Of a DNA stretch of 64,000 nucleotides, positions 7,870 through 53,992 are shown one piece after another. The position numbers and the translations under genes are program-made. Below the pieces are notes generated by a model. The model was not told the DNA's origin. It worked only from the letters and a program-made list of their open reading frames with translations, and did no database searches. The stretch comes from an uncultured delta proteobacterium (lineage in GTDB: Bacteria; Desulfobacterota; WTBG01): NCBI GenBank assembly GCA_963793865.1, contig CAWCBP010000004.1, forward strand, positions 64,703-128,702, read 5' to 3'. Numbering within the stretch: position 1 is the stretch's first letter; every line of letters begins with the position of its first letter.

Positions 7870-9222
7870 ATGAAACGAGTGAAGCTGCTGATTGTCGATG
7901 ACGAAGAAAAGATCCTTCAAACCATGAAGGGAAGCCTGGAAGATGAGGATTATGAAGTGCTCACCGCCAAGGACGGGCAGGAGGCCATGGAGAAAGTCCG
8001 CTCGGAAAATCCCGAACTGGTTTTTCTTGACATCTGGCTCCCGGGGATGGACGGCATGGAAACCCTCAAGGCCATCAAGGAATATGACCAGAACCTCGAC
8101 GTGGTGATCATGACCGGACACGGGACCATGAATACCGCCATCCAGGCCATCAAGCTCGGTGCCTTTGACTTTCTGGAAAAACCACTTTCCCTGGACTCCA
8201 TCTTCTCCGTCATTCACAGCGCCCTGGAACAAAAAAGGGGCAGGGCCGAGGAGGCGGAGCCGGCGATTGAGGAGCCGGACGATTTCATCGGTGAAAGCCT
8301 TTCCATCATGCAGATCAAGAAGGAGATAAAGAAGCTTGCCAAAACCGGGAAAAACCTCTTCATCACCGGGGAGAGCGGAACGGGAAAGGAGTTTGCGGCC
8401 CGGCTCATTCACCACGAGAGCCCGCGGAGAAAAAACCCCTTTATCAAATTCAGCTGCACCATCTATTCCCCCGAAGAAATGAGCCACAATCTTTTCGGGA
8501 CGGCGGCGCATGCATCCAGGAAAAACCTGGTTCGAAAAGCCGGCGAGCTGGAGCGGGCGGCAAAGGGGACCCTGTTTCTGGACACCATCGAGGAAATGCC
8601 TCTTTCCATCCAGGAAGAGTTGGCGGAGGCGCTCAAGAAGAAAAAAAACAAGGGGGGCGGCAAACAGGACAAGGCAAATGAGCCGAGAATCCTGGCATCG
8701 TCGAATGACGATCCGGCCTTAATGGTCAAAGAGGGCAAGTTGAACCAGGAGCTTTACGGGCTGCTGGCGGAGGGCACCATCATGCTGCCTCCCCTGCGGG
8801 AGCGAAAGGATGATATCCTGAAGATCTTTACCTTCTTCATGGAGGGATTCTCGCAGAAACACGGCCGGAAGATAAAAGAGCTGGATGAAGACGCGCAGGA
8901 AGCGCTGATGAACTACCACTGGCCGGGCAACAGCAAGGAGCTCAAAAATTTTGCCGAGCGGCTGGTAACATCCGTGGTGACCACCGCCAAAATCGGCCTG
9001 GAAAGCCTGCCCCTTTCCATGCGGGGAGAGCTCGCCGCTTCAAAAACGCGCGCCTTCGACAAATACACTTCCATGAAGGAGGCGGAAAATGCCTGGAAAA
9101 AGGAGTTTCTCATCTTCCACCTGAAGAAGCACAACGTCGACATTCCCGCAACCGCGCGGAGCCTCGGCATGCGCCAGGACACGCTGAGGCGCCATATAGA
9201 CACCTTCGGCATCAAGCTGATG
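7870..9222 (+). CDS. ntrX: sigma-54-dependent response regulator (NtrX/NtrC family: REC + AAA+ sigma-54 activator + Fis-type HTH); no stop codon, reads in-frame into lpxC
   Basis: Receiver LLIVDDEE...DIWLPGMDG; the AAA+ Walker A motif GESGTGKE; a GAFDF-like motif; and a C-terminal HTH ATARSLGMRQDTLRRHIDTFGI. It is 451 aa, a typical NtrC-family length, but the ORF continues without a stop into the next gene. Confidence 0.75.
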
Positions 9223-10083
9223 CCCGGCAAAAAAACCGCGGCGGGTCCCCGCCAGAGAACGCTCAAGAAAAGCGTGGTCTTAAGCGGTGAGGGGCTTCAT
9301 TCAGGGATGAAATCGGGGCTGATACTGTCTCCCCTTCCGCCCAACAGCGGGATCGTGTTCGGCAACATCACTACCAGCGATACCGTGCCCGCCCACCTTG
9401 ACTTCGTGGAATCCACCGACTACGCCACCTCCCTGAAGAGCGGGCAGGCGTATGCCCGGACCATCGAACACTTCATGGCGGTGCTCCATGCCTACCACAT
9501 CAGCAACCTTCAGGTCAAAATCAGCGGCGAAATCCCCATCATGGACGGCTCGGCGCTTGAATTCTGCCAGCTTATCGAGGAGGCGGGCATCGATGAGCAG
9601 GACGCCCCCCTCGAGGAAATCGTCATCGAGGAGAAATATGTGGTCGGCGACCCCTCGCCGGACTCCAAGTACATTTCCATAGAGCCGCACCCCTCCTTCA
9701 CCGTCAAATACCTGCTCAACTACCCCAGCCCGGTGGGCAAACAGGAATTCTCCTTCACCTTAAAGGACGCTCAATCCTTTAAGGACCTCATCGCACCGGC
9801 ACGCACCTTCGGCTTCCTCAAGGATATTGGTGAGCTGCAGAAGCGGGGTTTGGCCAGCGGGGGAAAGCTGCTCAACTGTATTCTCATCGATGATGAAAAG
9901 GTGGTGAACACTGAGCTGCGCTTCCCGGAAGAGTTTGCCCGCCACAAAATCCTTGATCTCATGGGCGACTTTTACCTGCTGGGCAAACCCATACGCGGCC
10001 TGGTGACCGCCCAGATGACCGGCCACACGGACAACAGCGAGCTCTTAAAAAAGATACGTGACAGCCTCGGCGCCTTCTGGTAA
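9223..10083 (+). CDS. lpxC: UDP-3-O-acyl-N-acetylglucosamine deacetylase
   Basis: MPGKKTAAGPRQRTLKKSVVLSGEGLHSGMK...EHFMAVL...IPIMDGSA...ARTFGF..GGKLLNCILIDD...HKILDLMGDFYLLG aligns along its full length to LpxC (about 287 aa). It sits in the same frame as ntrX with no intervening stop. Confidence 0.8.
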   Translation, partial: PGKKTAAGPRQRTLKKSVVLSGEGLHSGMKSGLILSPLPPNSGIVFGNITTSDTVPAHLDFVESTDYATSLKSGQAYARTIEHFMAVLHAYHISNLQVKISGEIPIMDGSALEFCQLIEEAGIDEQDAPLEEIVIEEKYVVGDPSPDSKYISIEPHPSFTVKYLLNYPSPVGKQEFSFTLKDAQSFKDLIAPARTFGFLKDIGELQKRGLASGGKLLNCILIDDEKVVNTELRFPEEFARHKILDLMGDFYLLGKPIRGLVTAQMTGHTDNSELLKKIRDSLGAFW

Positions 10084-10173
10084 AAGGGTGCGGGGCGGTT
10101 CACAATGATACCGATCCTTGAAGGGCGGCCTTCAAGGATTTTCCATGCCACAACGATGCGGACAGGAGGAACC

Positions 10174-11828
10174 ATGGCGGGCATAAAGGAAGAGACAGAA
10201 CGCTGGGAACAAACCATCGTTAAAAAGTCCCTGCAGAAATTCCCCGAGCGCAAGGAGCAGTTCCGCACCACCTCGGGGATCACCATGAAGCGGCTGCATA
10301 CGCCTGCGGATATCGATGATGCAGACTATGTCACCGAGCTGGGGTTTCCGGGCGAATATCCCTTCACCCGGGGGGTACAGCCCACCATGTACCGGGGCAG
10401 GTACTGGACCATGCGCCAGTACTCCGGTTTCGGTACCGCCGAGGACACCAACAGGCGCTACAAGTATCTCCTGGATCAGGGACAGACGGGCTTGAGCGTT
10501 GCCTTTGATCTGCCCACCCAGATCGGATACGACTCGGACCACCCCCTGAGCACGGGGGAGGTGGGCAAGTGCGGCGTGGCCATCGACTCCCTCGGGGACA
10601 TGGAGATCCTCTTCGACGGCATACCCCTGAACAAGGTGAGCACCTCCATGACCATCAACTCCACCGCAGCCACCCTGCTGGCCATGTACATGGTGGTGGC
10701 TGAAAAACAGGGGGTTTCCCCGGCAGAGCTCCGCGGCACCATCCAGAACGACATTCTGAAGGAATACATCGCCCGGGGAACCTACATCTACCCGCCGCAG
10801 CCGTCCATGAGAATCGTCACCGACATATTCGCCTTCTGCAAGGATCATCTCCCCCAGTGGAACAGCATCAGCATCAGCGGGTACCACATCCGGGAGGCCG
10901 GCTCATCGGCGGTCCAGGAAGTGGCCTTTACCCTGGCCGACGGCATCGCTTACGTGGACGCGGCCATCCGGGCGGGCCTGGATGTTGACGAGTTTGCCCA
11001 GCGGCTTTCCTTCTTTTTCAACTGCCACAACAATTTTTTCGAGGAGATCGCCAAGTTCCGCGCCGCGCGCCGGCTCTGGGCCCGCATCATGAAGGAGCGC
11101 TTTAACGCCAAAAAGCCCGCATCCTGCATGCTTCGCTTTCACACCCAGACCGCGGGCTGCACCCTCACCGCCCAGCAGCCGCGCAGCAACGTGGTCCGGG
11201 TCGCCTACCAGGCACTGGCCGCGGTGCTGGGCGGAACCCAGTCCCTGCACACCAACTCCTTCGATGAGGCGTTCTGCCTGCCCACGGAAGAGGCCGTCAG
11301 CCTGGCCCTGAGGACGCAGCAGATCGCGGCCTATGAAACCGAGGTGGCCGACAGCATCGATCCGCTCGGCGGCTCCTACCTGGTGGAGTCCCTGACCAAC
11401 GACATCGAGCGGGAATCAAAGGGCTACATCCAGAAGATTGACGCCATGGGCGGGATGATCAGGGCCATCGAAGAGGGATACGTGCAGAAGGAAATCGCAA
11501 ACAGCGCCTACATCTACCAGAAAGAGGTGGAAAGCAAAAAGCGCATCATCGTGGGGATGAACCAGTTCACCACCGACGACCCCTTTTCTGCAAGCTGCTC
11601 AAGGTCAGCACCGAGGTTGAAAACCTGCAAACAAGCAAGCTCAAGAAGCTGAAGGCGGATCGCGGGATGGTGCCCGGGCAAGCAGAGGCGCTCGGCGCCC
11701 TGAAAGCAGGCCGCCGAAGGAACCGCCAATCTCATGCCGCCGGTGGTTGATGCGGTCAGGGCCTATGCGACCCTGGGCGAGATCGCGGACGTGCTGCGGG
11801 GCGTGTTCGGGGAGTATCGCGAGCGCTG
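10174..11828 (+). CDS. methylmalonyl-CoA mutase family, catalytic (substrate-binding TIM barrel) subunit without B12-binding domain; two frameshifts near the 3' end
   Basis: [60 protein letters not shown] is an MCM signature. The ATG at 10174 follows AGGAGGAACC. After residue ~470 the conserved C-terminal sequence ([23 protein letters not shown]... then [37 protein letters not shown]) continues in the other two frames, at about 11580 and about 11690. Confidence 0.7.
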
Positions 11829-12066
11829 AGGAAGGTTTTTTAGGATCCTGCTGGTAGTGTTTGGCCGTTTTTCCCTATTCGCGGATTAACATGTAGTCGC
11901 AGGCTTAAGCCTGCGTTCAAATAAAGGAGGGCGTTTAATTCTGCGCGAAGCAAGGAAGTCAATGCACAAAGAAAACGCAAGCTGAAGCTTGCGGCTACCT
12001 GGCGCCGGTACCCTTCAATTCGTCCAGGGCTAGAACATCATAGGCGGAGCTGTTGGACGCACTTTG

Positions 12067-13162
12067 CTACTGGCTGAACTTGAAGTGGAGCATGTCCCCG
12101 TCACGGACGGTATACTCTTTTCCCTCCAGGCGCAGGTGACCTTCCTCCCGGGCCGCTGAAAGGGAGCCCGCTTTCACAAAGTCATCATAGGACACCACCT
12201 CGGCCTTGATGAAGCCGTGCTCCATATCGGAATGGATTTTTCCGGCGGCCTGCGGCGCTTTGGTCCCCCTGGCCACGGTCCACGCCCGCAGCTCCGTGCC
12301 CACGGTGGTATAAAAGGTAATCAGGTTGAGCACGCCGTAGCCGGCCTTAACCAGCTGCTCCAGGCCCGATTCCGCGAGTCCCATGTCCGCCATAAATTCC
12401 TTCCGCTCCTCCTCGCTCTCAAGCAGCGCGATCTCGGCCTCAAGGTCACCGCAAATGACAACGAACCCCGCCTGTTCCCGCCGCGCCCTTTCTTCCACCG
12501 CTGCCGAGCGGCTCCTCTGCCCGGAGGTCCTCCTCGTCCACATTTGCCACATACAGGAGCGGCTTGGCGGTCAGGAGGGAGAGCTCGTGCAGGACATGAA
12601 GCTCCTGCCCGTCCCACTCCATGGTTCGCACCGTCCTCCCCTGCTCCAGGCCCGACTGCGCCTTGCGGTACACGGCCATTTCCTCCTCCGCTTTTTTATC
12701 CCCGACCCGCAGGAGCTTCCCCGCTTTTTCCATCCGCTTTTCCACCGTCTGCAGATCGGCCAGCATCAGTTCCGTGGCAACAATCTCCATGTCCCGCCCC
12801 GGATCAAGATCCCCGTAAAGGTGAGAAACATCATGTTTTTTAAAGCAGCGGACCACGTGGGCGATGGCATCCACCGCGCGGATGTGCCCCAAAAACTGGT
12901 TTCCCAGCCCTTCCCCCCGGCTGGCGCCTTTGACTAGGCCGGCAATATCCACAAATTCAATGGTGGTCGGGGTAACCGCGGGCGGCTTGATCATCGCCGC
13001 GATGGTCTGCAACCGCCGGTCCGGGACGGCAACCGTCCCCTTGTTGCAGTCGATGGTGCAGAAGGGATAGCTGGAGGCGGGCACCTGCGCCGAGGCCAGG
13101 GCGTTGAAAATCGTCGATTTGCCCACATTGGGCAATCCTACAATGCCGCAGGTGAAACCCAT
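12067..13162 (-). CDS. ychF: ribosome-binding ATPase YchF (Obg-family GTPase); one frameshift around 12446-12552
   Basis: The N-terminus MGFTCGIVGLPNVGKSTIFNAL (P-loop) and the C-terminal TGS domain ...KIHSDMEHGFIKAEVVSYDDF... lie in two overlapping ORFs (12446..13162 and 12067..12552) that together span 365 codons. Confidence 0.8.
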
Positions 13163-31889: not shown

Positions 31890-34800
31890 CTAATTCGGGT
31901 AGCTGCACCAATCGGGTTCTGCGCATGTAGGAGACTCAGGACAGGGATTCTGTATGCTGTTCCTGCCAAAGTCCGCCTTGAACCTGCTTGCATCAGTCCC
32001 ATCCACATCTGCGTCGCAATCAAAATCGCCGCGGCAGGGATTGAAGCTATTACAGGGAAAATTAAACTGGCCTCTACCAAAATAGAGTTTGAAGATGGAT
32101 GCATCCGAACCGTCGACATCTGCATCACAGTTAAAGTTTCCTTCACATTCGCAGGCATCACCCACTGTATTACCTCCGGGCGGAAGGTTGTCTTCCTGTC
32201 CGGGATTGTAATTTATGGGACAGTTGTCACACCCATCTCCAAAGCCATCGCCATCCGCCTCCGCCTGATCTGCATTAGCAACAGTGGGGCAGTTATCGAT
32301 GTCACCGCAAACGGTATCACCATCAACGTCGTTGTTGGGATCATTTGGACAGATGTCGTCGAAATCGCATGTTCCATCCCCATCCGTGTCACCGCCGCCT
32401 GCGGTAATACAGACGCCGCTCTGGCATTGATCAGGAATGGAGCAGGTGTCACCATCGTTGCAGATGGTTCCGTCGGGCAGCGGATCGGCTGCACAGGTTC
32501 CGGCAGGTTCTTCACAGACACCGGTATTGCACTGGTCGGTCAGGGAGGAGCAGTCCACCGTCAACCCTGCCTGACACATCTCAGTCAAGAGGTTGCAGGT
32601 CTCGGTACCGTTGCACGCAAGGCCGTCATCGCAGTCCGCGTCATCGCCGCAATTTACGCAGGGCGGCACGGACGTCGCCCAGGGCGTGTAGTCAACGTTA
32701 CCGGAAACCGCATCGCAACCGGCGGCTCCAGGTCCACTCACGCAGCCCCACCAGTTGTTTTCAGCAGTTAATGTTGCAGCCAACTGATTATTAACACCCG
32801 GCGTGTTTCCGTCTATGCTATTGTTTTCAATTAAAATTGTACCTGGCCAGCCATTATCCATATAAATACCATCTGACGCGTTGTTTTTAATCGCATTACA
32901 TTGAATGGAAACATCCTTGGGTCCGTAGGTTCCATTCACTGTCAACGCAGCATCAGCAATGGACTGAATATCAATACCCCACAAATTATTTTCAATAATA
33001 TTGTTTTCAACTACTATTGTTCTGGCATCAACAATCCAGATCGCATCATTGGTTGCATTATCATGGATGTAATTGTTTTTCACCTCAAGGGCTCCGGTAC
33101 CTGCAGTAATGGATTGCAGCACGATGCCGGAACACTTGGTATTAGTTACCTCATTATTTTCAATTAACAGCCCCGAATAATCCAGGTGGGCCGTTAAATC
33201 AGGGCCAGGAAAGCCCTCTGACTCATATCCGACATAAATACCGAATCCCCAATAGCCCGGCTGGATATTTGATACTTTGCAATTAGTGATGTGAATATTC
33301 TGCAAGTTATCCAGCGGTTTGGGGTCATATCCGCATACCATACCGTCCTGGGTGAAATTGGTTACATCAATATTGTTAAATGTAACGTTGCCCGATTTGA
33401 TTTTAACGCCGGTTGTCCATGTCGGCACCAGACCGGTTCCATCGAGCACTGCCCCGTCGCACCCGGTAGCCGTCAGCGCCTTGGGAATGATTACCTGTTC
33501 CGGGTAGGTGCCGGCGGCAACATATACCGTACCACCCGGCACCACTGCATCTACACCGAGCTGGATGTATTTGAAAGACTCGTTAAAGTTACCTCGTGCC
33601 GGATGCGCTGCGATGACCGTGCTGTCATCGTTTACAAAGATGTGGCTGCGGTTGCCCTCCGCTGTTCCATCTGCTGCGCGCCGGTCCAGCACAAAGGCGT
33701 CATTGTTGGCAACCGAAAGTGCCAGCACACTCTGTTGGTAATCCGGGTCAAAGAGTGCACCGCCCGTATTCCAAACAATGTCCCATTCGTTGTGGGTGGC
33801 TTCGAAGCTGGGACATTCACCGTGGGTCCCATATTGTTCCCCAGGAGTTGTTACTCATCGTCCTGTTATCGGCATCCGCCTGATTATTGGTATAGTTCAT
33901 TATCCCGCCCTTGGTGTCGTAAATTGTGTTGTTGCTGATGGTGACAGTATTGTTATACTGGACCACCACACCATTGCGGGTGTTGTAAATTGTATTGCCG
34001 GTGATGCTGATGCCGGTGGCGGCACCGGAACCGACACAGATGGCGATTCCGCCCCAAGTGCTCATGGCTCCCGACTGGGCAGGTACATAGATTGTATTAT
34101 CCGTAATCGCAATTCCAGAAAGGCCCAGGTTGACGGGCACCCGTATCAGGGAGTACACCAGTTCATTAAATGCCGGCAGGGGTGCCGGGGGAGGATACGG
34201 GGGCATTGCACTGTGTGTAATCTCCAGATCCTGCAGGGTTACATTATTTGCCCTGATCTCGAAGACCGAGACGGCGGCAGTGGTGCCCTGTACAATGGCT
34301 CCCCCGCCGGAAGGTCCTAAGATGGTGACCGGCTTATTCACAATTATAGTTGCTGCAACATTGTATGTTCCCGCTGCCACATTAATTATAGTGGCATCTG
34401 CACCATAAACAACGGTACGGCCCCAGAGCGCCTCAGCGGTAATTTCGTTGTTTTCTCCGCTGCCTATATAGTTTTCCCAGCCGCCCGTTCCCAGTTGTAC
34501 GCTTCCCATGTAGTCTGCTGCTCCCTGTATCTCAACTATATAACCGTCACGGTCAACCTCATTCAGGGCCATTATGGCATAGGCGGTTTCCTGGATAGTT
34601 TCATCGCCGTCGTTTGGAATTACGTAGTTTGAGTTCCAGGCAAAGCCACCCCCGGCTATCTGGTAGCCGGCAAGAATCGCCGCCAAATCACTTAAGCTGC
34701 CGGCTGCCGCATGCTCACCTGCAGTCGGGTCAAACTCCTCACCCACCAATGCAAGTGCATATACAGCTCCGGCAAGTCCTATGACATCATAGTATGCATC

Positions 34801-35556
34801 ACCATCAAGTTCATCAATCTCTCCCTTGACACCGGCAATCCACTCGGCGGTGCCGGCTCCTGCGGAGGCCGCACCAACCAGGCCCATGGCTACATCCCAG
34901 GCTGCTAAATTTGCTATGCCCTGATTAAAACGGTCATCACGGATCTTCTGTACATAGCTCGCCGTGCTATAGAGTACGCCTAAGTTTAGTCTGTCATACG
35001 TGCCGGCGGCCAGAGGTCCATAGAAATAGGTATTGACGTGGTCAGTGTAAGTGGTTCCCCCGAATATCTGGTCAAGCTTAGCTGCCAGATATCCGTCCGA
35101 AGGTGAGAAATTGTAAACCTTTGTTAAAAGGAAAGTACCTGCATCCTGCAGGGCTGCAAGATGATCAGGATCTGCCGTGTGTGAATAGGCCTGGGCAAGA
35201 CCCATGGCGATGGGACCAACTGTATTGGTGGGACTTGCGGAAGCGGGATTACCATCATTAAGCGGCCAGTCCCATCCTCCATCATTGTTCTGCAAAGCAG
35301 CAAGCCTGTCGGCACCGCTCTGCATTGAGGTATCAATTGCGACGCTCGCGTCAATGGCGGCCTGAATGGTTGAATAGCAACCACCTGTTCCGCCGGTATT
35401 AACGCACAACGTTTCCGCACTTGCGGCTCCCAGTCCCAAAGGGATGAGCACTGCCGTAATGACCACAGAAGAAAATATTGATGTAAGCTTTTTCATTCTT
35501 CCCCTCCATCGTGAATAGGTTTTAAAGCAAAGCTTCGTTGAAAATAATCTTCTCAC
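31890..35556 (-). CDS. large secreted protein: signal peptide, alpha/alpha-toroid-like region, two right-handed beta-helix (NosD/pectate-lyase-like) segments, thrombospondin type-3 Ca-binding repeats, Cys-rich modules and C-terminal dockerin-like repeat pair; frameshift near 33730-33830
   Basis: ORFs 33817..35556 (MKKLTSIFSSVVITAVLIPLGLGAASA signal, NNTIYD beta-helix turns) and 31890..33728 (IENN/VENN beta-helix repeats; TSP3 DTDGDGTCDFDDICPNDPNNDVDGD...DGDGFGDGCDNCP; terminal CDADVDGSDASIFKLYFGR and CDADVDGTDASRFKADFGR) are contiguous in different frames. Confidence 0.65.
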
Positions 35557-36108
35557 TGCATCAAGTCCGTTGCCTCACCCCCTTTCGTGAAATCGTTGCT
35601 CAGTAAAATTTAAAACCTTCTTTAAAATGAAAAACCCTTTCATCTATGTTTAATGCATGAAAAAGGGTTAAATAAAAATAAGCTGCCCTGGGAATGGCAT
35701 ATGAAGTCATGGTAGTCGACACAGGAATGCCATTCACGTACGGGCAGCGGAAGGCTACAGGATTAAAACTAAAATTTCTCAGACTTACGCTCCTATAGTT
35801 TCAACTCTGAAATTTAATCTGCACAAGAATTATTATACTTTTAATACTATCCCTGGGCAGGTATGGATCGGAAACAATAGCAAATAACATATTGCATATA
35901 CATATACCTAAAGGCCATATTGTTTTTATCTTTTTTTTCATATTTTGTATATAGGCAGAAATCTGATTTACCCATTCGAAATTCCTGATTTTTTGCTTCG
36001 AAAAACCTTAGATGCTGCTTCGAATATTCTTATAAATAATTAATCAAATAACCTCAAAAATACAAAAAATGCATATGTATATAATTGGTTCGGAAAACTT
36101 GTAATTAC

Positions 36109-36151
36109 CCACAAAAAAAAGACCCATCAGCAAAGGTTTTGCCGATGGGTC
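36109..36151 (-). terminator. rho-independent terminator of the giant Cys-rich gene
   Basis: Minus strand reads TAAGGAGGGGA-CCCATCGGCAAAACCTTTGCTGATGGG-TCTTTTTTTT. Confidence 0.7.
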
Positions 36152-36199: not shown

Positions 36200-39100
36200 T
36201 CAGTATATCTCCCCGAACAGGCAATAATCACAGCAGTTCATTCTGCCCAGGGCTTTATCAATCATCACCAGCACATCAAAGATGTCTATGTCATTATCGC
36301 TCTCACAGTTCGGGGTACCGGATGGATTTCCGCAATAGGGAGGCAAACCATTGGGCACATCCCCGTTACCAATCTGGCAGTCAGTAGCCGTCTGGAGATT
36401 CAGGATAATATCAACCGCTTCAAGGATATCAAACAGGTCCACTATGCCGTCGCCGCAGCAGGTCGGAGCACCGCAGGTCCCGCCGATGCAGTCCTGGGGA
36501 TAAATATCACCGCAGGTGGTGAAGCAGACCTCGCCCGGGCTTTCGCAAACGCACAGATCCTCGTTATACTGATCTGAAATCTTGCTGGCAACCGGACAAA
36601 GATCAACGCAGGCGTCCTCGCCACAGGTATCCTGCTCAGGCCCTGCTGAATAGACTATCCGGGCAACGGTTCCTCTTCCCTGTGTAATAATGGCCGACGG
36701 ATCGGTCGAGTACAGGACTATCCTGCAGCACCCGTCTGCCTGCTCATTAGCTGAGCAGCTGAAATCGAGGGCGCGGTCAGGATCAACCACACACTGGGTG
36801 CATACCAGGTTGTCCTCCCCGCCTGCGCACTCACAGATATCCGTGACCATCGCCCGTATACTATGTTCCGGGTTAATGAGATTCAGATCAACCAGCCCCG
36901 ACTCGCTGTTGGGCTGCATGTTGGTGTCGCCAATATCCACAATCACCTTGCCGATGTCGATTTCTACACTATCAGTACCCCATTCGCAGGTGTCGGTTAC
37001 CGTTATTTCGTATTGCGCAATTTTATCAAGCTGCTGGCAGGAATCGTCAATGGTCAACCTCCAGCAGCAGTTATCGATCTGGTCAATGCTTAAGAATGGT
37101 TCTGCCGGATCGATTGACCACGCCAGGCACGACGGATCGAACGGGTCGCAGTCAGAGCAGACAGTAAAATCGATGACATCATTACATGTGGCGGCAAGTC
37201 CGCGCCTTCCCGGCCGGTTGTATGCGGGATCATTAATCTCTTCACCGGGGCACGTCCTGCCCCGGGCAATTTCAATACCGCACACACAGCCCGGAATCTT
37301 GGTTCCAACACACGTACCGGCAACGCAGACATCGTCTTTGGTACAGGAGTCGGCATCATTGCAGGGTAGTGTATTGTTGGGATTGCTGCAGCCCACTCCT
37401 ACTGTGCATATGTCGCCAGTGCAAACATTATTGTCGGAACAGAGTGTATTGTCAGGCGTTCCGTTACAGGTACCGTCTGAGCAGGTGTCGTTCTGGGTGC
37501 AGGCCAGCGTATCATCGCAGGGCAGAGTGTTGTTAGGATGGGAGCATGTTCCGGAACCGTTGCAGACGTCATTGGTGCAGACGTTGCCATCGTCATCGGT
37601 ACAGGTGGTACCGTTAGCGGTATAGCAGTTATCTGCGGATTCGTTACAAGTGTTGTTGCAATCAGGCCCGCTGCTGCAGGGATCGCCGGCATGGACTGAG
37701 CAACTCCCTACGCCGCAGGTATCGGTACCGTTGCAGTATAAGCCGTCATCGCAGGCGGTACCGTCAGGAGGATAGCAGTTGTCGGCAGTCTCGTTGCATG
37801 TATTGTTGCAGGCCGGCCCGCCAATGCAGGGGTCGCCGGCATGCACTGAGCAACTCCCGCCGCTGCAGGTATCGGTACCATTGCAGTATACGCTGTCATC
37901 GCAGGGCAGAGTGTTGTTAGAATGGGAGCAGGTTCCGGAGCCGTCGCAGACATCGTTGGTGCAGACGTTGCCGTCATCGGTACAGGAGGTGCCGCTTGAG
38001 GTGGAGCAGTTATCTGCGGATTCGTTGCAGGTATTGTTGCAATCAGGCCCGCTGCTGCAGGGATCGCCGGCATGGACTGAGCAACTCCCGCCGCTGCAGG
38101 TATCGGTACCATTGCAGTATAAGCCGTCAGTGCAGGCGGTGCCGTTAGGGGGATAGCAGTTGTCGGCAGCCTCGTTGCAGGTGTTGTTGCAGATGGGCCC
38201 GCCGCTGCAGGGGTCCCCGGCATGAACAGAACAACTCCCGCCGCTGCAGGTATCCGTACCAGTGCAGTACAAGCCGTCATTGCAGGATGCGGTGTTGTTG
38301 GTATGCACGCAGCCGGTCGAGATATTACAGCTGTCAGTTAGTGCAGATGTTGCTGTCATCACAATTTGGTGCCGCTCCTCCAACGCATGTCCCGCCTGAA
38401 CAGGTGTCACTGGTGGTGCAGGCGTTTCCGTCATTGCAGGATGCGGTGTTGTTGGTATGCACGCAGCCGGTCGAGATATTGCAGCTGTCGTTGGTGCAGA
38501 CGTTGCTGTCATCACAATTTGGTGCCGCTCCTCCAACGCATGTCCCGCCTGAACAGGTGTCACTGGTGGTGCAGGCGTTTCCGTCATTGCAGGATGCGGT
38601 GTTGTTGGTATGCACGCAGCCGGTCGAGATATTGCAGCTATCGTTGGTGCAGACGTTGCTGTCATCACAGCTCAGTGCCGCTCCTCCAACGCATGTCCCG
38701 CCTGAACAGGTGTCACTGGTGGTGCAGGCGTTTCCGTCGCTGCAGGATGCGGTGTTGTTGGTATGCACGCAGCCGGTCGAGATATTGCAGCTATCGTTGG
38801 TACAGACGTTGCTGTCATCACAGCTCAGTGCCGCTCCTCCAACGCATGTCCCGCCTGAACAGGTGTCACTGGTGGTGCAGGCGTTTCCGTCATTGCAGGA
38901 TGCGGTGTTGTTGGTATGCACGCAGCCGGTCGAGATATTGCAGCTGTCGTTGGTGCAGATGTTGCTGTCATCACAATTTGGTGCCGCTCCTCCAACGCAT
39001 GTCCCGCCTGAACAGGTGTCACTGGTGGTGCAGGCGTTTCCGTCATTGCAGGATGCGGTGTTGTTGGTATGCACGCAGCCGGTCGAGATATTGCAGTTGT

Positions 39101-41069
39101 CGTTGGTGCAGACGTTGCTGTCATCACAATTTGGTGCCGCTCCTCCAACGCATGTCCCGCCTGAACAGGTGTCACTGGTGGTGCAGGCGTTTCCGTCATT
39201 GCAGGATGCGGTGTTGTTGGTATGCACGCAGCCGGTCGAGATATTGCAGCTGTCGTTGGTGCAGACGTTGCTGTCATCACAATTCGGTGCCGCTCCTCCA
39301 ACGCATGTCCCGCCTGAACAGGTGTCACTGGTGGTGCAGGCGTTTCCGTCATTGCAGGATGCGGTGTTGTTGGTATGCACGCAGCCGGTCGAGATATTGC
39401 AGCTATCGTTGGTGCAGACGTTGCTGTCATCACAATTTAGTGCCGCTCCTCCAACGCATGTCCCGCCTGAACAGGTGTCACTGGTGGTGCAGGCGTTTCC
39501 GTCATTGCAGGATGCGGTGTTGTTGGTATGCACGCAGCCGGTCGAGATATTGCAGCTATCGTTGGTGCAGACGTTGCTGTCATCACAATTAGGTGCCGCT
39601 CCTCCAACGCATGTCCCGCCTGAACAGGTGTCACTGGTGGTGCAGGCGTTTCCGTCATTGCAGGATGCGGTGTTGTTGGTATGCACGCAGCCGGTCGAGA
39701 TATTGCAGCTGTCGTTGGTGCAGGCGTTGCTGTCATCACAGCTCAGTGCCGCACCACCAACGCATGTCCCGCCTGAACAGGTGTCACTGGTGGTGCAGGC
39801 GTTTCCGTCATTGCAGGATGCGGTGTTGTTGGTATGCACGCAGCCGGTCGAGATATTGCAGCTATCGTTGGTGCAGATGTTGCTATCATCACAGCTCAGT
39901 GCCGCTCCACCAACGCATGTCCCGCCTGAACAGGTGTCACTGGTGGTGCAGGCGTTTCCGTCATTGCAGGATGCGGTGTTGTTGGTATGGGTGCACGTTC
40001 CGGAGCCGTCGCAGAGATCGTCGGTGCAGACATTGCCATCATCGGCGCAGGATGTCCCGCTTGTGGTGTAGCAGTTATCTCCGGATTCGTTACAGGTGTT
40101 GTTGCACTCAGAGCCACCAGTGCAGGGGTCTCCAGAGTGCACACAGCTCCCTCCGCTGCAGGTGTCGGCGCCGTTGCAGTATAAGCCGTCATCACAGGAA
40201 TACCCATCCTCTCTCGGGGTGGAAACGCACTGACCAGTTCTGGTGCTGCATACACCGACGCTGCAGGCATCATCCAGGTCTGAACAGTCGACATTCTGGC
40301 AAATATTAGGATCGGTTGCAGTGGTGACACAATCTGACGGGTCAGAATTCGGCTGCTCCGAGGCAATAGCACAGGAATCGGAAATTGGCACACAATCACT
40401 GTCTACGCCACAACTAGCTCCGCTTACGGCACACATGTTATTTTCGCAACGCTCGCCATACACGATGTCATCTATTTCTATCAGGCATTTGACGAACGCA
40501 TCTTCAGTAGTACAGTCTGTCCCAAAACAAGTGTGTGTAATACCATAGGGATCAGCATCTTCTCCTGATGGTTCGCTTCCGCCCACATTTACATAACAAA
40601 TGGAAGTAAATGCTTCAATTTCAACGCTATTAGTACACCTATCATACCTATCATCGTTACACTGGAAAAATCTCGGGCTGAAAGAGCTCTGAGTCGCCGG
40701 AGGACCACCCTCAACGGTCACACAGAGTGCATAGTTCGCGTATGTGTCAAAGTCCGAATCGAAAAGTATACAGCTATTACCCGTGTTAGCACCAGACCAT
40801 CTTGTGTCATCAAAGTTGAACGTCACAGTCAGTTCAAACTGATTCTCACCCGGTCCCACACAGTACTCGGTTACGTCCTTTTGACCCGGTTCGTCATCCA
40901 TCCCTTGCAGGTCTACGCTACAGACCTGCGCCGCTACCGGCAAAACATCGATGGATGAGTAGCCCAAAACGATTGCAAACGTGAAGATCAGTAGTATGAG
41001 AAAGCTTTTTGTTTCTTTCCCGATGATTATTGATGATGAACGTTTTCCCGCTACTTTTCTCAATATCAA
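36200..41069 (-). CDS. giant secreted Cys-rich repeat protein (about 1620 aa) with about 11 tandem 50-aa repeats and a C-terminal dockerin-like domain; one 1-bp frameshift near 38340
   Basis: N-terminal TM/signal sequence. Repeats are CDDSNVCTNDSCNISTGCVHTNNTASCNDGNACTTSDTCSGGTCVGGAAPN. The downstream modules are diverged (CNGTDTCSGGSCSVHAGDPC...). The terminal region GDGIVDLFDILEAVDIIL...SDNDIDIFDVLVMIDKALG resembles paired dockerin Ca-binding segments. ORFs 38334..41069 and 36200..38668 are joined by removing one inserted T in the last repeat. Confidence 0.7.
38340..39960. repeat. tandem array of about 11 near-identical 150-bp coding repeats (in-frame, inside the giant Cys-rich gene)
   Basis: Copies show more than 95 % nucleotide identity with scattered point differences (AALS/AAPN/AALN variants). 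Every alternative-frame ORF in the six-frame track across this span is repeat shadow. Confidence 0.9.
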
Positions 41070-41309
41070 AATACCCCCATCCTTTGCTCTATACTACCAT
41101 AAGTAACGAGATCCTGGAAAAAGAGCAAAGAGTCAAAAAATGGTAAATTATTAAATCTAGTATTAAATATACTATGAAATACTATGAATGGTTTCCCACG
41201 AATTTTACTAAATTTTTCCTTTTTGTCAATAGGAAAAACCCTGATTTTTGGCTTCGAAAACCCTTAGTTTTTCTCCAGCAAAAATTGATGAGCACTATTG
41301 AGTATCCTC

Positions 41310-41343
41310 AAAAAGACCCCTCGGCAAGGGTTTTGCCGAGGGG
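41310..41343 (-). terminator. orphan hairpin terminator module (same TAAGGAGGGGA-hairpin-T-run unit as at 36.1 kb)
   Basis: An 11-bp perfect stem CCCCTCGGCAA/TTGCCGAGGGG with a T5 run on the minus strand. There is no ORF of 60 aa or more upstream of it on that strand. Confidence 0.55.
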
Positions 41344-41687
41344 TTCCCCTCCTTATTTCGTGTTTTTTATCATTAGATTATAAAATTTATATTCTATCTG
41401 CTCTTCTCGACCACTAAGAAAAAAGGCTAATAACAAACGAAAACGATTTCATTTATAAATGACTTTAGCTTATTTGTCTATAGGCAAAACCCTGATTTTT
41501 TGCTTCGAAAACCCTGATTTTTTGCTTCGAAAAACCTTAGTTAAAATAGCGAAAGCTATCTATGGACATAAAAGCAAAACTTTCATCAAGTTTTATAATC
41601 AGTTACCGATAACAGTATGCGGGTAGACTCTACCTGTTATATAATTATAGATAGTAAAAAGCTCAGAAGCAGGTTAGGAAAACTTCT

Positions 41688-45898: not shown

Positions 45899-46792
45899 AT
45901 GAAAAATTTTACGCTTATAGCAGTGCTTGCGTTCATTGTCGGCCTGATGGGCAGCCCCGCACTCGGAGTCGAATACAGCACAGACTTTTTAGAGCCCGGC
46001 AACCCGGGAGGCGTTTCGGGAAGTTTGAAAACCTTTGATGACGGGTGGACGCTTGAAATCGGTAGTACCGTTGATGCGGACATCTGGATTAGCGACCTGC
46101 CGGAGGACATGATAACGGCAGGATTTATCCTCGAGTATGATGAATCAAGGGTATCCATTGCTAATATAGCAGTTTATGACGGTACCCTTCCCGGTCCGTG
46201 GGATGGCGATATGACTACTATTGTCGACGATCCTTCGAAACCGGGCATACTGGCGGTGATTGTAGGGAATTTTTCTTGCATCGATCCCGATGCAAGCAGA
46301 GATATTGCAATCGCCCGGGTTACTTTTGAATGTATATCAACCGAGGATGCCCAGGTCACCGTTAAACCGGTGTCGGATTTCGATACCATAGTAAGCTGCG
46401 AGGGAACAGTATATGATCCCCAAATAGCTCTTCATACCATCACCATATTTCAGGAGGGAACGGGACCGTCAACTACCACCACCTCCCCCTCAACCACGAC
46501 GTCGGCAGTAATCACATCATCAACTACCAGTTCACCGTCAACTACCACAACAACCATCAAGCGATGCCTGTCCGAGTCAATCTACGGCGGATACGCAGAA
46601 GAAACAAAACTTCTACGGCACTTCCGCGACAATGTATTACGCCAAACCGCTGAAGGCCGTGAACTGATAAATCTGTATTACCTGTGGAGCCCTGTCATCG
46701 TGAGCGCAATGGAAGGTAATGATGAGTTGAGGACATGGGTAAAGGAAATGATTGATGATGTATTGCCCGTGATACAAGAGGCAGTGGAATAG
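45899..46792 (+). CDS. secreted cohesin-like domain protein with Ser/Thr-rich linker and conserved C-terminal roughly 70-aa domain
   Basis: Signal peptide MKNFTLIAVLAFIVGLMGSPALG. The cohesin-like strands AGFILEYDESRVSIANIAVYDG and IAIARVTFECISTEDAQVTVKP. A (S/T)-rich linker. A C-terminal domain C-x4-IYG...LLRHFRDNVLRQTAEGRELINLYY... Confidence 0.55.
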   Translation: MKNFTLIAVLAFIVGLMGSPALGVEYSTDFLEPGNPGGVSGSLKTFDDGWTLEIGSTVDADIWISDLPEDMITAGFILEYDESRVSIANIAVYDGTLPGPWDGDMTTIVDDPSKPGILAVIVGNFSCIDPDASRDIAIARVTFECISTEDAQVTVKPVSDFDTIVSCEGTVYDPQIALHTITIFQEGTGPSTTTTSPSTTTSAVITSSTTSSPSTTTTTIKRCLSESIYGGYAEETKLLRHFRDNVLRQTAEGRELINLYYLWSPVIVSAMEGNDELRTWVKEMIDDVLPVIQEAVE

Positions 46793-52766: not shown

Positions 52767-53315
52767 TCATTCTTTACCCGGGAGGAAGTTTTGGCATACC
52801 CGATCCCCATGATAAAGGTATCTTCGGCAGAAATCCTCCTTTAACCCCCTTATTACTTCGTTCACCTCCTTGATATATTCATCTCTCGGTACCACTATCT
52901 CGGCGACCCGCTTATTTTTCAGCTCGGAAATGCGGACCAGCCACGACCGCACGACCTTGCCGCTGACCCCGCCCCCCTGCCCGGAGGCGGCTATTTTAAC
53001 AGACTGCTGCTGAAGCTTCTCCACCATGTACAATAGCTGTGCCTTATCTTCCTTCAGGCTGTCCCGCTCCTTCGCGGTCAAACGCAATTCTTCCTGAAGC
53101 TCCTTAACCCGGGTGCTCAGTTCCTGATTGGATTCTTTCAACTGCTCTGCAGGATTGTCCGCGCCACCCTGCGCTGATCCGGAAGTGCCGGGCGAAGCCG
53201 GATCTCCGCCCTGTTTATGAACACCGTACAGGACTGCAGCAATAAGCACTGCCAGGCAGGCGCAGATAAGCAGCCGGGCAGAGCGTCTGCTCCACCACGA
53301 ATTCGATGACGGCAT
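52767..53315 (-). CDS. secreted coiled-coil protein (hypothetical)
   Basis: N-terminal TM/signal (LLICACLAVLIAAVLYGV). The heptad-rich segment LKESNQELSTRVKELQEELRLTAKERDSLKEDKAQL. The start is ambiguous and the ORF extends to 53381. Confidence 0.4.
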   Translation of the reverse strand: MPSSNSWWSRRSARLLICACLAVLIAAVLYGVHKQGGDPASPGTSGSAQGGADNPAEQLKESNQELSTRVKELQEELRLTAKERDSLKEDKAQLLYMVEKLQQQSVKIAASGQGGGVSGKVVRSWLVRISELKNKRVAEIVVPRDEYIKEVNEVIRGLKEDFCRRYLYHGDRVCQNFLPGKE

Positions 53316-53344
53316 GGTCAATCGGTACCCCGCATCATGATGCT

Positions 53345-53992
53345 TCACTCGTCCCAGAAAAGGAAATCCGGCACCGGGCAATGCTGCTGAATGGGATATA
53401 TCGCGGCGATGCCCTCCCGGTCATAATCAGATATGATAATGTCCTGGTCCGAACGGAGTTCTCCGTAGTCGAAGAACGGATACATGAGATCGGAGGGATC
53501 ATCGCTGTGACGCAGTCCCAGCGCATGTCCGAGTTCGTGGCGGGCAACGCTGCGCATGCCGGCGCCGCTCATCCTCCGCCCCAGGGCCTCCGCATTAAGT
53601 TGAATCAGCGCGCTTCTCAGGACACACCCGGACTGCCCCACAGTCCTGGTCAGCGTTTGGCCCAGCGGGTAGCGATCGCCGGTTCTTATTATGATTGCCG
53701 CGTCCGCCTTCCTTACATCATCAGCCCAGGTGAGGACGGGGGCATCGTCAATGTCAGCCAGCACATCATTCCAGTCGTTTACCGCGGCCTCGATATCCAG
53801 CACCATCTGCCGGGGCTGCCGTTCCGAATCTTTTATGGCAACCGTTACCTGCGGTTTATTCCAGCCTGCACCGAGGAGATCCAGGGTTGAGGCACGGCCC
53901 ACCCCTCCGCCTGCCACCGCAAGATATAAGGACATGCACAAAATCGCACCTGCTCTGCAAAGACTTCTCATATGCGCCAACTTTCTCCTCAA
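53345..53992 (-). CDS. matrixin-type zinc metalloprotease (M10 family)
   Basis: HELGHALGLRHSDDPSDLMYP (HExxHxxGxxH plus Met-turn) and a signal peptide. Confidence 0.75.
   Translation of the reverse strand: MRRKLAHMRSLCRAGAILCMSLYLAVAGGGVGRASTLDLLGAGWNKPQVTVAIKDSERQPRQMVLDIEAAVNDWNDVLADIDDAPVLTWADDVRKADAAIIIRTGDRYPLGQTLTRTVGQSGCVLRSALIQLNAEALGRRMSGAGMRSVARHELGHALGLRHSDDPSDLMYPFFDYGELRSDQDIIISDYDREGIAAIYPIQQHCPVPDFLFWDE

Follow-up and report, generated by a model that had tools for sequence, protein, structure and literature searches.

The subject of this analysis is a large gene on the minus strand (41069..36200) of a 64,000-nt stretch of contig CAWCBP010000004.1 (assembly GCA_963793865.1, from an uncultured delta proteobacterium), referred to below as the window. 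After deletion of one extra T at 38336 the gene encodes a product of 1622 amino acids (aa), 208 of which are Cys (12.8%). This bears out the original prediction of one giant secreted Cys-rich repeat protein, and the motifs CDDSNVCTNDSC and CNDGNACTTSDTCSGGTC described there were seen in the product. From the N- to the C-terminus the protein is composed of a signal peptide, a conserved head of ~200 aa, ~1000 aa of 4-Cys CTDC-type repeats and a 368-aa C-terminal module of Ig-like, cohesin and dockerin domains, the folds of the module being those of predicted structures. In the assembly as given, the gene is read as two open reading frames (ORFs). The first, 38334..41069 (-), encodes 911 aa, starts with TTG and ends in ...CDDSNICTN and a stop codon; the second, 36200..38668 (-), lies in the next frame, continues ...DSCNISTGCVHT... 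and contributes its part 36200..38335 to the joined gene. The joined protein also contains 54 N-x-S/T sequons, several of which recur in every repeat unit (HTNNTAS, CNIST, CNNTCNES, CNGTD), which could reflect N-glycosylation or mere repeat composition.

Head domain and repeat stalk

The TTG start and the N-terminal signal peptide or anchor (aa 1-47: a K/R-rich n-region, FLILLIFTFAIVLGY, ...PVAAQ) were located by translation at 40929..41069 (-). They are followed by the head domain (aa 48-248; 40326..40928, -), which belongs to a family of 28 proteins in which the motifs D-x-x-G-x-D-D-E-P-G-Q-K-D and P-N-S-D-P-S-D-C are invariant. Relatives have equivalent signal peptides, with an A-x-A end immediately before the conserved head domain. 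What comes after the head in relatives is an Ig-like domain in some proteins and, in others, a Ser/Thr linker with an IPTL-CTERM sorting signal (P0239, TIGR04174). Because of the signal peptide before it and the Ig-like domain or sorting signal after it, we take the head to be a displayed surface domain.

The stalk begins with diverged Cys-rich (CTDC-type) repeats at 39984..40325 (-), recognised in the translation and through a Dicty_CTDC match to a fragment that includes this stretch. Next comes a tandem array at 38300..39983 (-), defined by Tandem Repeats Finder (TRF), repeat families and a copy-by-copy table, with 11 units of 153 bp (51 aa each) that are 94-99% identical. Repeat searches found older diverged Cys-rich repeats behind it at 37307..38299 (-), which are 50-aa LYCNGTDTC...CNNTCNE units with a 381-bp period (two copies at 88%) and a 150-bp period (two copies at 82%). 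TRF itself placed the array at 38274-39989 with a period of 153, 11.2 copies, 97% matches and a score of 3157. The 11 near-identical copies had been predicted correctly; the unit length given with them, 150 bp or 50 aa, had to be replaced by the TRF period of 153 bp (51 aa). The pairwise differences between copies 1 to 10 affect 1-9 of 153 positions (94-99% identity), which supports the earlier view of a young, near-identical and in-frame array, and almost no variation is seen in the first 72 nt of the unit. The 51-aa consensus is NNTASCNDGNACTTSDTCSGGTCVGGAA[LP][SN]CDDSN[IVA]CTNDSCNISTGCVHT, and each unit consists of two 4-Cys half-units, C-x-D-x-N-x-C-T-x-D-x-C. Along the 11 copies the variant blocks run LS, LS, PN, LN, PN, PN, PN, LS, LS, PN, PN, a pattern that suggests multi-unit duplication. 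As the unit of 153 bp is 3 x 51, copies can be gained or lost without a change of frame. The array is a typical young surface-protein repeat. Horizontal transfer was set aside as the source of its higher G+C content, for which the repeat's own codon content accounts.

To place the repeats in a family, the hidden Markov model searches named in the original prediction were run, with negative outcomes for the families proposed there. The NCBIfam scan at E<=1 returned no family, hence no Myxo_disulf_rpt (TIGR02232), and the Pfam scan at E<=1 gave no match to DUF4215 (PF13948). The matching family was Dicty_CTDC (PF00526), with 53.8 bits against a gathering score of 27 over three stretches of a 464-aa fragment (aa 1-464, holding two array copies). 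Searched against a protein database, a one-copy version of the protein had more than 4138 significant matches, most of them PF00526 proteins of 1-2 thousand aa from metagenome-assembled genomes (MAGs) of Binatia, Myxococcota, 'Deltaproteobacteria' and Planctomycetota. Many of the repeat homologs carry the dockerin PF00404 and one carries the cohesin PF00963. The CTDC repeat class is thus common and ordinary. One ortholog, P0001 (1327 aa, 68% identity, GCA_016294925.1, locus L001), shares the head and the C-terminal 368 aa with the giant protein in one unbroken ORF. It is without the 11-copy array and has arrays of its own (165 bp x2.5 at 94%, 387 bp x2.2 at 91%, and 231 bp x2.7). Because the arrays of P0001 differ, stalk turnover appears to be fast and to proceed separately in close relatives, with head and tail preserved.

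The number of copies in the array, their order or both might be products of the assembly and not the true genomic structure. Indel errors do occur elsewhere in the assembly, and short reads cannot resolve near-identical 153-bp units over 1.7 kb. A scan of a metagenome collection gave 0 matches to the invariant part of the repeat unit and likewise 0 to the frameshift junction, whether the extra T was included or not. Exact look-ups of three proteins of the window in an assembly collection returned no record. We nevertheless hold an assembly product to be quite unlikely, since 10 of the 11 copies are in exact 153-bp register, the variant blocks are structured and not random noise, and P0001 independently has young arrays in the corresponding region.

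Interrupted reading frames and flanking signals

The sequence and the copy-by-copy table place the extra T (A on the plus strand) in copy 11 at 38336 (-), where it creates the stop TGA at 38336-38334. A single-base insertion that breaks the frame in the last repeat had been predicted at ~38345; the insertion was found, at the different position. Copy 11 reads ACTAAC-T-GACAGC where the corresponding stretch of the other copies is ACCAACGACAGC. The DNA across the junction is ATCTGCACTAAC-T-GACAGCTGTAAT, and the ten preceding copies have [AG][TC]CTGCACCAACGA[CT]A[GA]CTGCAAT. No stop interrupts the 712 codons after the shift, which are 71% identical to P0001, and a 435-aa stretch of the joined protein across the frameshift aligns to P0001 as a single segment with 71% identity.

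Other genes of the window are broken as well. The ychF gene is split into 12446-13162, which holds the MMR_HSR1 GTPase domain, and an overlapping ORF at 12067-12552 in another frame, which holds YchF-GTPase_C (120.9 bits). In the methylmalonyl-CoA-mutase gene (10105-11829), profile positions 1-439 and 482-512 are found in different frames, and by the three-frame translation there could be three shifts in ~250 bp. The local indel error rate in the window is high. As several housekeeping pseudogenes in 64 kb are improbable for a free-living genome, an artefact is the simpler reading, and we consider it likely that the +1 T at 38336 arose in sequencing or assembly.

If the frameshift were real, the gene would be a very recent pseudogene or an 'off' variant making a 911-aa head-plus-stalk fragment without the cohesin-dockerin module. 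The given sequence does carry the extra T and the TGA, and two more substitutions lie at most 15 nt away, as they would if copy 11 had genuinely diverged. The extra T also stands outside any homopolymer, the commonest setting of long-read indel errors, and this counts against an error. We still regard a real frameshift as unlikely, because the 712 downstream codons are intact and conserved and because frameshifts also affect at least two housekeeping genes of the 64 kb, a sign of an error-prone assembly. Reversible phase variation, moreover, would be without a mechanism. No slippage-prone tract (a homopolymer, or a short repeat with a unit that is not a multiple of 3) was found at 38336, whose context is GCACTAAC-T-GACAGC, and the sole repeat at the site is the 153-bp unit, 3 x 51. 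The phase-variation-like off state proposed originally is unlikely for the lack of such a tract, for the unit being a multiple of 3 and for the other frameshifts in housekeeping genes. Programmed frameshifting was rejected together with phase variation, the site having no slippery or repeat tract. As a practical warning, so many indel errors make frameshift-based inference from this window unsafe.

Three further places in the window may be affected as well. Directly downstream of the giant gene on the minus strand, a beta-helix gene is present as 33817-35556 (579 aa, with a signal peptide) and 31890-33728 (612 aa, without one), and this pair of ORFs (31890-35556) is probably a single secreted protein whose frame is broken at a CCC run near 33820. 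P0006 was ruled out as a reference for the split gene because it is not a homolog. The combined protein would contain beta-helix domains, CTDC-like Cys-rich repeats and thrombospondin-type-3-like repeats and, at its C-terminus, two CDADVDG[ST]DAxxFK segments, another tail of the Ca-loop type at the locus. At 7870-10083 (+) the REC, sigma-54 AAA+ and HTH domains of an NtrC-type response regulator and a complete LpxC domain are read in one 737-aa ORF without an intervening stop, the result either of a genuine fusion or of a stop codon lost in an error-prone assembly. At 52767-53992 (-) two ORFs of the same strand share 37 nt, possibly through another frameshift; the first (215 aa) has a matrixin (Peptidase_M10) domain that reaches nearly to its C-terminus, and the next is 204 aa long. 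Since the window encodes LpxC, the host is taken to be diderm.

Upstream of the giant gene, a promoter-like TTGACA-16-TAAAAT is present at 41202..41229 (-), with 11 of 12 consensus matches, ~133 nt 5' of the start codon. The repeat search found a 19-nt motif, TTCGAAGCCAAAAATCAGG, directly 5' of it at 41240..41258 (-). This motif (TTCGAAGCAAAAAATCAGG) has four copies on the minus strand of the window (41513-41531, 41491-41509, 41240-41258 and 35984-36002), with 0.03 expected by chance. All four are confined to the two intergenic regions that flank the giant gene, and every copy is immediately 5' of a CCTAT(A/T)GACAAA -35-like box. From this arrangement, the motif may be a shared operator or UP element of the giant gene and the next secreted-protein gene. 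At the 3' side, the strong terminator that had been predicted is indeed there, an intrinsic terminator at 36113..36150 (-) with a 13-bp stem, a 3-nt loop and T8 (hairpin 36150-36122), a folding free energy (dG) of -29.8 kcal/mol and a z-score of -6.5; a simple terminator scan missed this hairpin. A near-copy of it occurs at 41316-41344, upstream of the giant gene's own promoter (AAGGAGGGGAACCCCTCGGCAAAACCCTTGCCGAGGGGTCTTTTT), and is preceded by a second motif-plus-promoter-like cassette. The region 41316-41480 may correspond to a short transcript of ~150 nt or to a remnant of a duplicated 3' end. An Rfam search of the upstream region returned nothing above threshold.

The Ig-like, cohesin and dockerin module

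The C-terminal module (minus strand) was divided with the aid of the match ranges of an exhaustive search, which delimit units at residues 1-119 (Ig-like), 120-262 (cohesin) and 263-368 (dockerin). The first, at 36950..37279 (module residues ~10-119, the limit being set by those ranges), is an Ig-like beta-sandwich of eight strands in the AlphaFold2 model (predicted local distance difference test, pLDDT, 86.4). The predicted structure of the second, at 36521..36949 (residues ~120-262), has the nine-stranded jelly-roll of the cohesin fold, and that of the third, at 36203..36520 (residues 263-368), has the duplicated loop-helix pair of the dockerin fold. The whole module is modelled as one compact body, with a predicted template modelling score (pTM) of 0.79. 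The original prediction had noted the dockerin-like tail and overlooked the Ig-like and cohesin domains directly upstream of it.

The tail contains two G-D...D-x-x-[VI]-D-x-F-D segments (GDGIVDLFD and SDNDIDIFD), each followed by a helix, and ends in an invariant N-C-C-D-Y-C. Segment 1 starts at G266-D267 and has D286/D290/D293 (D5...D9...D12) before the helix 291-301; segment 2 starts at G315-D316 and has D337/D341/D344 before the helix 342-352. Each loop is split between D1 and D5 by an insert of 18-20 residues with conserved Cys bounds (C273...C283/284 and C325...C334) and low pLDDT. Compared with the contiguous 12-residue F-hand (D1-x-[DN]3-x-D5-G-x-x-x-x-x-D12), G0-D1 and D5...D9...D12 are conserved in both loops and are set apart by the insert. 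A G0-D1 start is the mark of the dockerin F-hand, and an N-to-C 'clasp' has been described for dockerins (PMC3821032). By analogy, C265 (position -1) and the C-terminal N-C-C-D-Y-C could be a covalent version of that clasp. Of the dockerin-like tail as first proposed, the fold is upheld by the predicted structure; a match to PF00404 and two plain DxDxDG loops are not, the loops being split and forming a distinct variant.

Sequence models do not see these domains. No match was obtained at E<=10 to the dockerin PF00404 with the 115-aa tail or to the cohesin PF00963 with module residues 10-262, and a profile of 78 family members had no match to PDB sequences at E<=1. The module nevertheless has its own family, with 117 proteins in a word-indexed search and, in an exhaustive search of 1.84 billion proteins, 216 cluster representatives at E<=0.001 and 122 at E<=1e-10. 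Its members have no Pfam annotation over the module region; one of them, P0151, has PF00404, located in an extra N-terminal region. Some proteins have only the cohesin or only the dockerin part, placed at the N- or the C-terminal end. The N-terminal partner of the module ranges from a signal peptide and Ser/Thr linker only (L002, a Thermodesulfobacteriota MAG, 71% identity) to a cohesin-like and an Ig-like domain (P0141-type proteins, ~630 aa), canonical dockerin repeats (P0151), CTDC repeats (P0199 and the giant protein) and LRR or Kelch domains (P0227, P0231). In the metagenome assembly GCA_016294925.1 at least three module proteins are encoded on three different contigs, namely the ortholog of the giant protein, the module-only P0128 (359 aa) and the cohesin-Ig-module protein P0139 (634 aa). 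In occurring with N-termini that are unrelated, and in having cohesin and dockerin parts that are also found alone, the module behaves like an interaction module.

The gene neighbourhoods of the module family hold ordinary metabolic genes and no conserved partner. The module-only paralogs of two MAGs (L002 8518-11903 and L004 8615-11905) are locally syntenic, with an unannotated protein of ~240 aa upstream and a PNPOx-like gene downstream, and no cohesin or dockerin partner adjoins either of them. In the window itself, the cohesin-like protein predicted at 45.9 kb proved a good guess at the level of fold. The protein encoded at 45899..46792 (+) is a candidate partner, with a signal peptide, a cohesin-fold domain, a Ser/Thr-rich linker and, after the linker, a C-terminal CFI-box-CTERM domain (NCBIfam NF041770; 55.8 bits against a cut-off of 40; residues 227-288 of 297). 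It has no Pfam cohesin PF00963 match at E<=10. From its modelled fold, it is a plausible tethered cohesin partner of the giant protein's dockerin.

Proposed docking, known systems and significance

On balance we lean towards a secreted surface or scaffold protein whose stalk length changes through repeat expansion and which docks by cohesin-dockerin pairing. The protein would be an exported, disulfide-bonded modular surface or matrix protein of a diderm bacterium, in which the Cys-rich repeats would form a rigid, disulfide-stapled stalk that serves as spacer and whose length would drift by unequal recombination between near-identical 153-bp units. The dockerin would attach it to a cohesin, which may be that of the CFI-box-CTERM protein 5 kb away or that of paralogous module proteins, giving a head-to-tail or network assembly, and its own cohesin would be a further docking site. 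It would be a non-cellulosomal cohesin-dockerin system, probably of Thermodesulfobacteriota, a lineage judged only from two genome loci of the closest module relatives.

Several observations weigh against this reading. The Pfam, NCBIfam and PDB profiles are all negative, so that the cohesin and dockerin calls rest on predicted structures, and the head family has neither a Pfam match nor a PDB sequence match. As neither loop has a contiguous D-x-[DN]-x-D-G start, calcium dependence could have been lost, and the high pTM could equally be read as the dockerin packing on its own cohesin. The helix-loop pair might then be only a structural Ca-binding or disulfide-stabilised cap that binds no cohesin in trans, and the protein a free secreted adhesin or a metal- or mineral-binding protein acting through its Cys-rich repeats. 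The unmatched PF00404 and the interruption of both F-hand loops fit such a cap, as does the fact that the three domains of the module usually travel together and are modelled as a compact body. Proteins with a dockerin only or a cohesin only exist, however, as would be expected of separable partners, and a gene nearby encodes another cohesin protein, one with CFI-box-CTERM at its C-terminus; both make the cap doubtful in our view.

If docking by cohesin-dockerin pairing is accepted, a further step can be proposed, which we offer tentatively and think rather improbable in its full form. The Ig-cohesin-split-loop-dockerin unit would be a self-complementary block with which the paralogs (module-only, cohesin-Ig-module and giant stalk) would polymerise into an extracellular lattice in Thermodesulfobacteriota, tethered by CFI-box-CTERM cohesin proteins. 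The disulfide-bridged inserts and the covalent Cys 'clasp' would partly replace calcium, and the expanding stalk would set the reach of the head.

The closest known arrangement is that of the cellulosomal adaptor and anchoring scaffoldins (ScaA/ScaB of Ruminococcus flavefaciens and Acetivibrio cellulolyticus), which like the giant protein are secreted and combine a cohesin fold with a C-terminal dockerin fold; the separate cohesin protein with a C-terminal CFI-box-CTERM domain nearby was counted as a likeness as well. Unlike those scaffoldins, the giant protein is encoded at a locus without carbohydrate-active enzymes or carbohydrate-binding modules, in a diderm lineage, and is without a PF00963 or PF00404 sequence match; its Ca-loops have Cys-bounded inserts and its spacer is a disulfide-rich repeat stalk, not a Pro/Thr linker. 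It resembles F-hand dockerins (PMC3821032) in the G0-D1 that opens both of its dockerin segments. With the bacterial Dicty_CTDC (PF00526) proteins of Myxococcota, Binatia and 'Deltaproteobacteria' MAGs it shares the 4-Cys C-x-D-x-N-x-C-T-x-D-x-C repeat, the size of 1-2 thousand aa, secretion and, often, a dockerin-type end, whereas its head, tail module and 11-copy array are common only to a few close relatives. The repeat motif of the giant protein scores above the gathering threshold of the Pfam model, which comes from the Dictyostelium extracellular-matrix and spore-coat CTDC proteins; these are eukaryotic and without cohesin or dockerin. The non-cellulosomal cohesin/dockerin modules (the Archaeoglobus fulgidus cohesin 2xdh and the Clostridium perfringens glycosidase pairs 2vo8 and 2o4e) belong to sequence families distinct from those of the giant protein. 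To our knowledge, neither a fixed Ig-cohesin-dockerin tri-domain unit nor split, Cys-bridged loops are features of those non-cellulosomal proteins. Such modules were reportedly surveyed by Peer et al. in 2009.

Giant PF00526 proteins and non-cellulosomal cohesin/dockerin modules are thus already known kinds. What is new is a small family unseen by sequence models, with a fixed unit that, according to the predicted structures, combines Ig, cohesin and split-loop Cys-bridged dockerin. The cellulosomes of Gram-positive anaerobes are the best-known setting of cohesin-dockerin pairing. Here both predicted folds are joined in a small family (216 cluster representatives), on very different N-terminal cargo and in lineages of the sulfate-reducer type. 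If the pairing is functional, this would be an example of extracellular protein assembly by diderm anaerobes and would supply a new disulfide-reinforced dockerin variant for protein engineering. If the lattice were true as well, it would mean a cohesin-dockerin surface assembly in anaerobic diderm bacteria that is unrelated to cellulose degradation.

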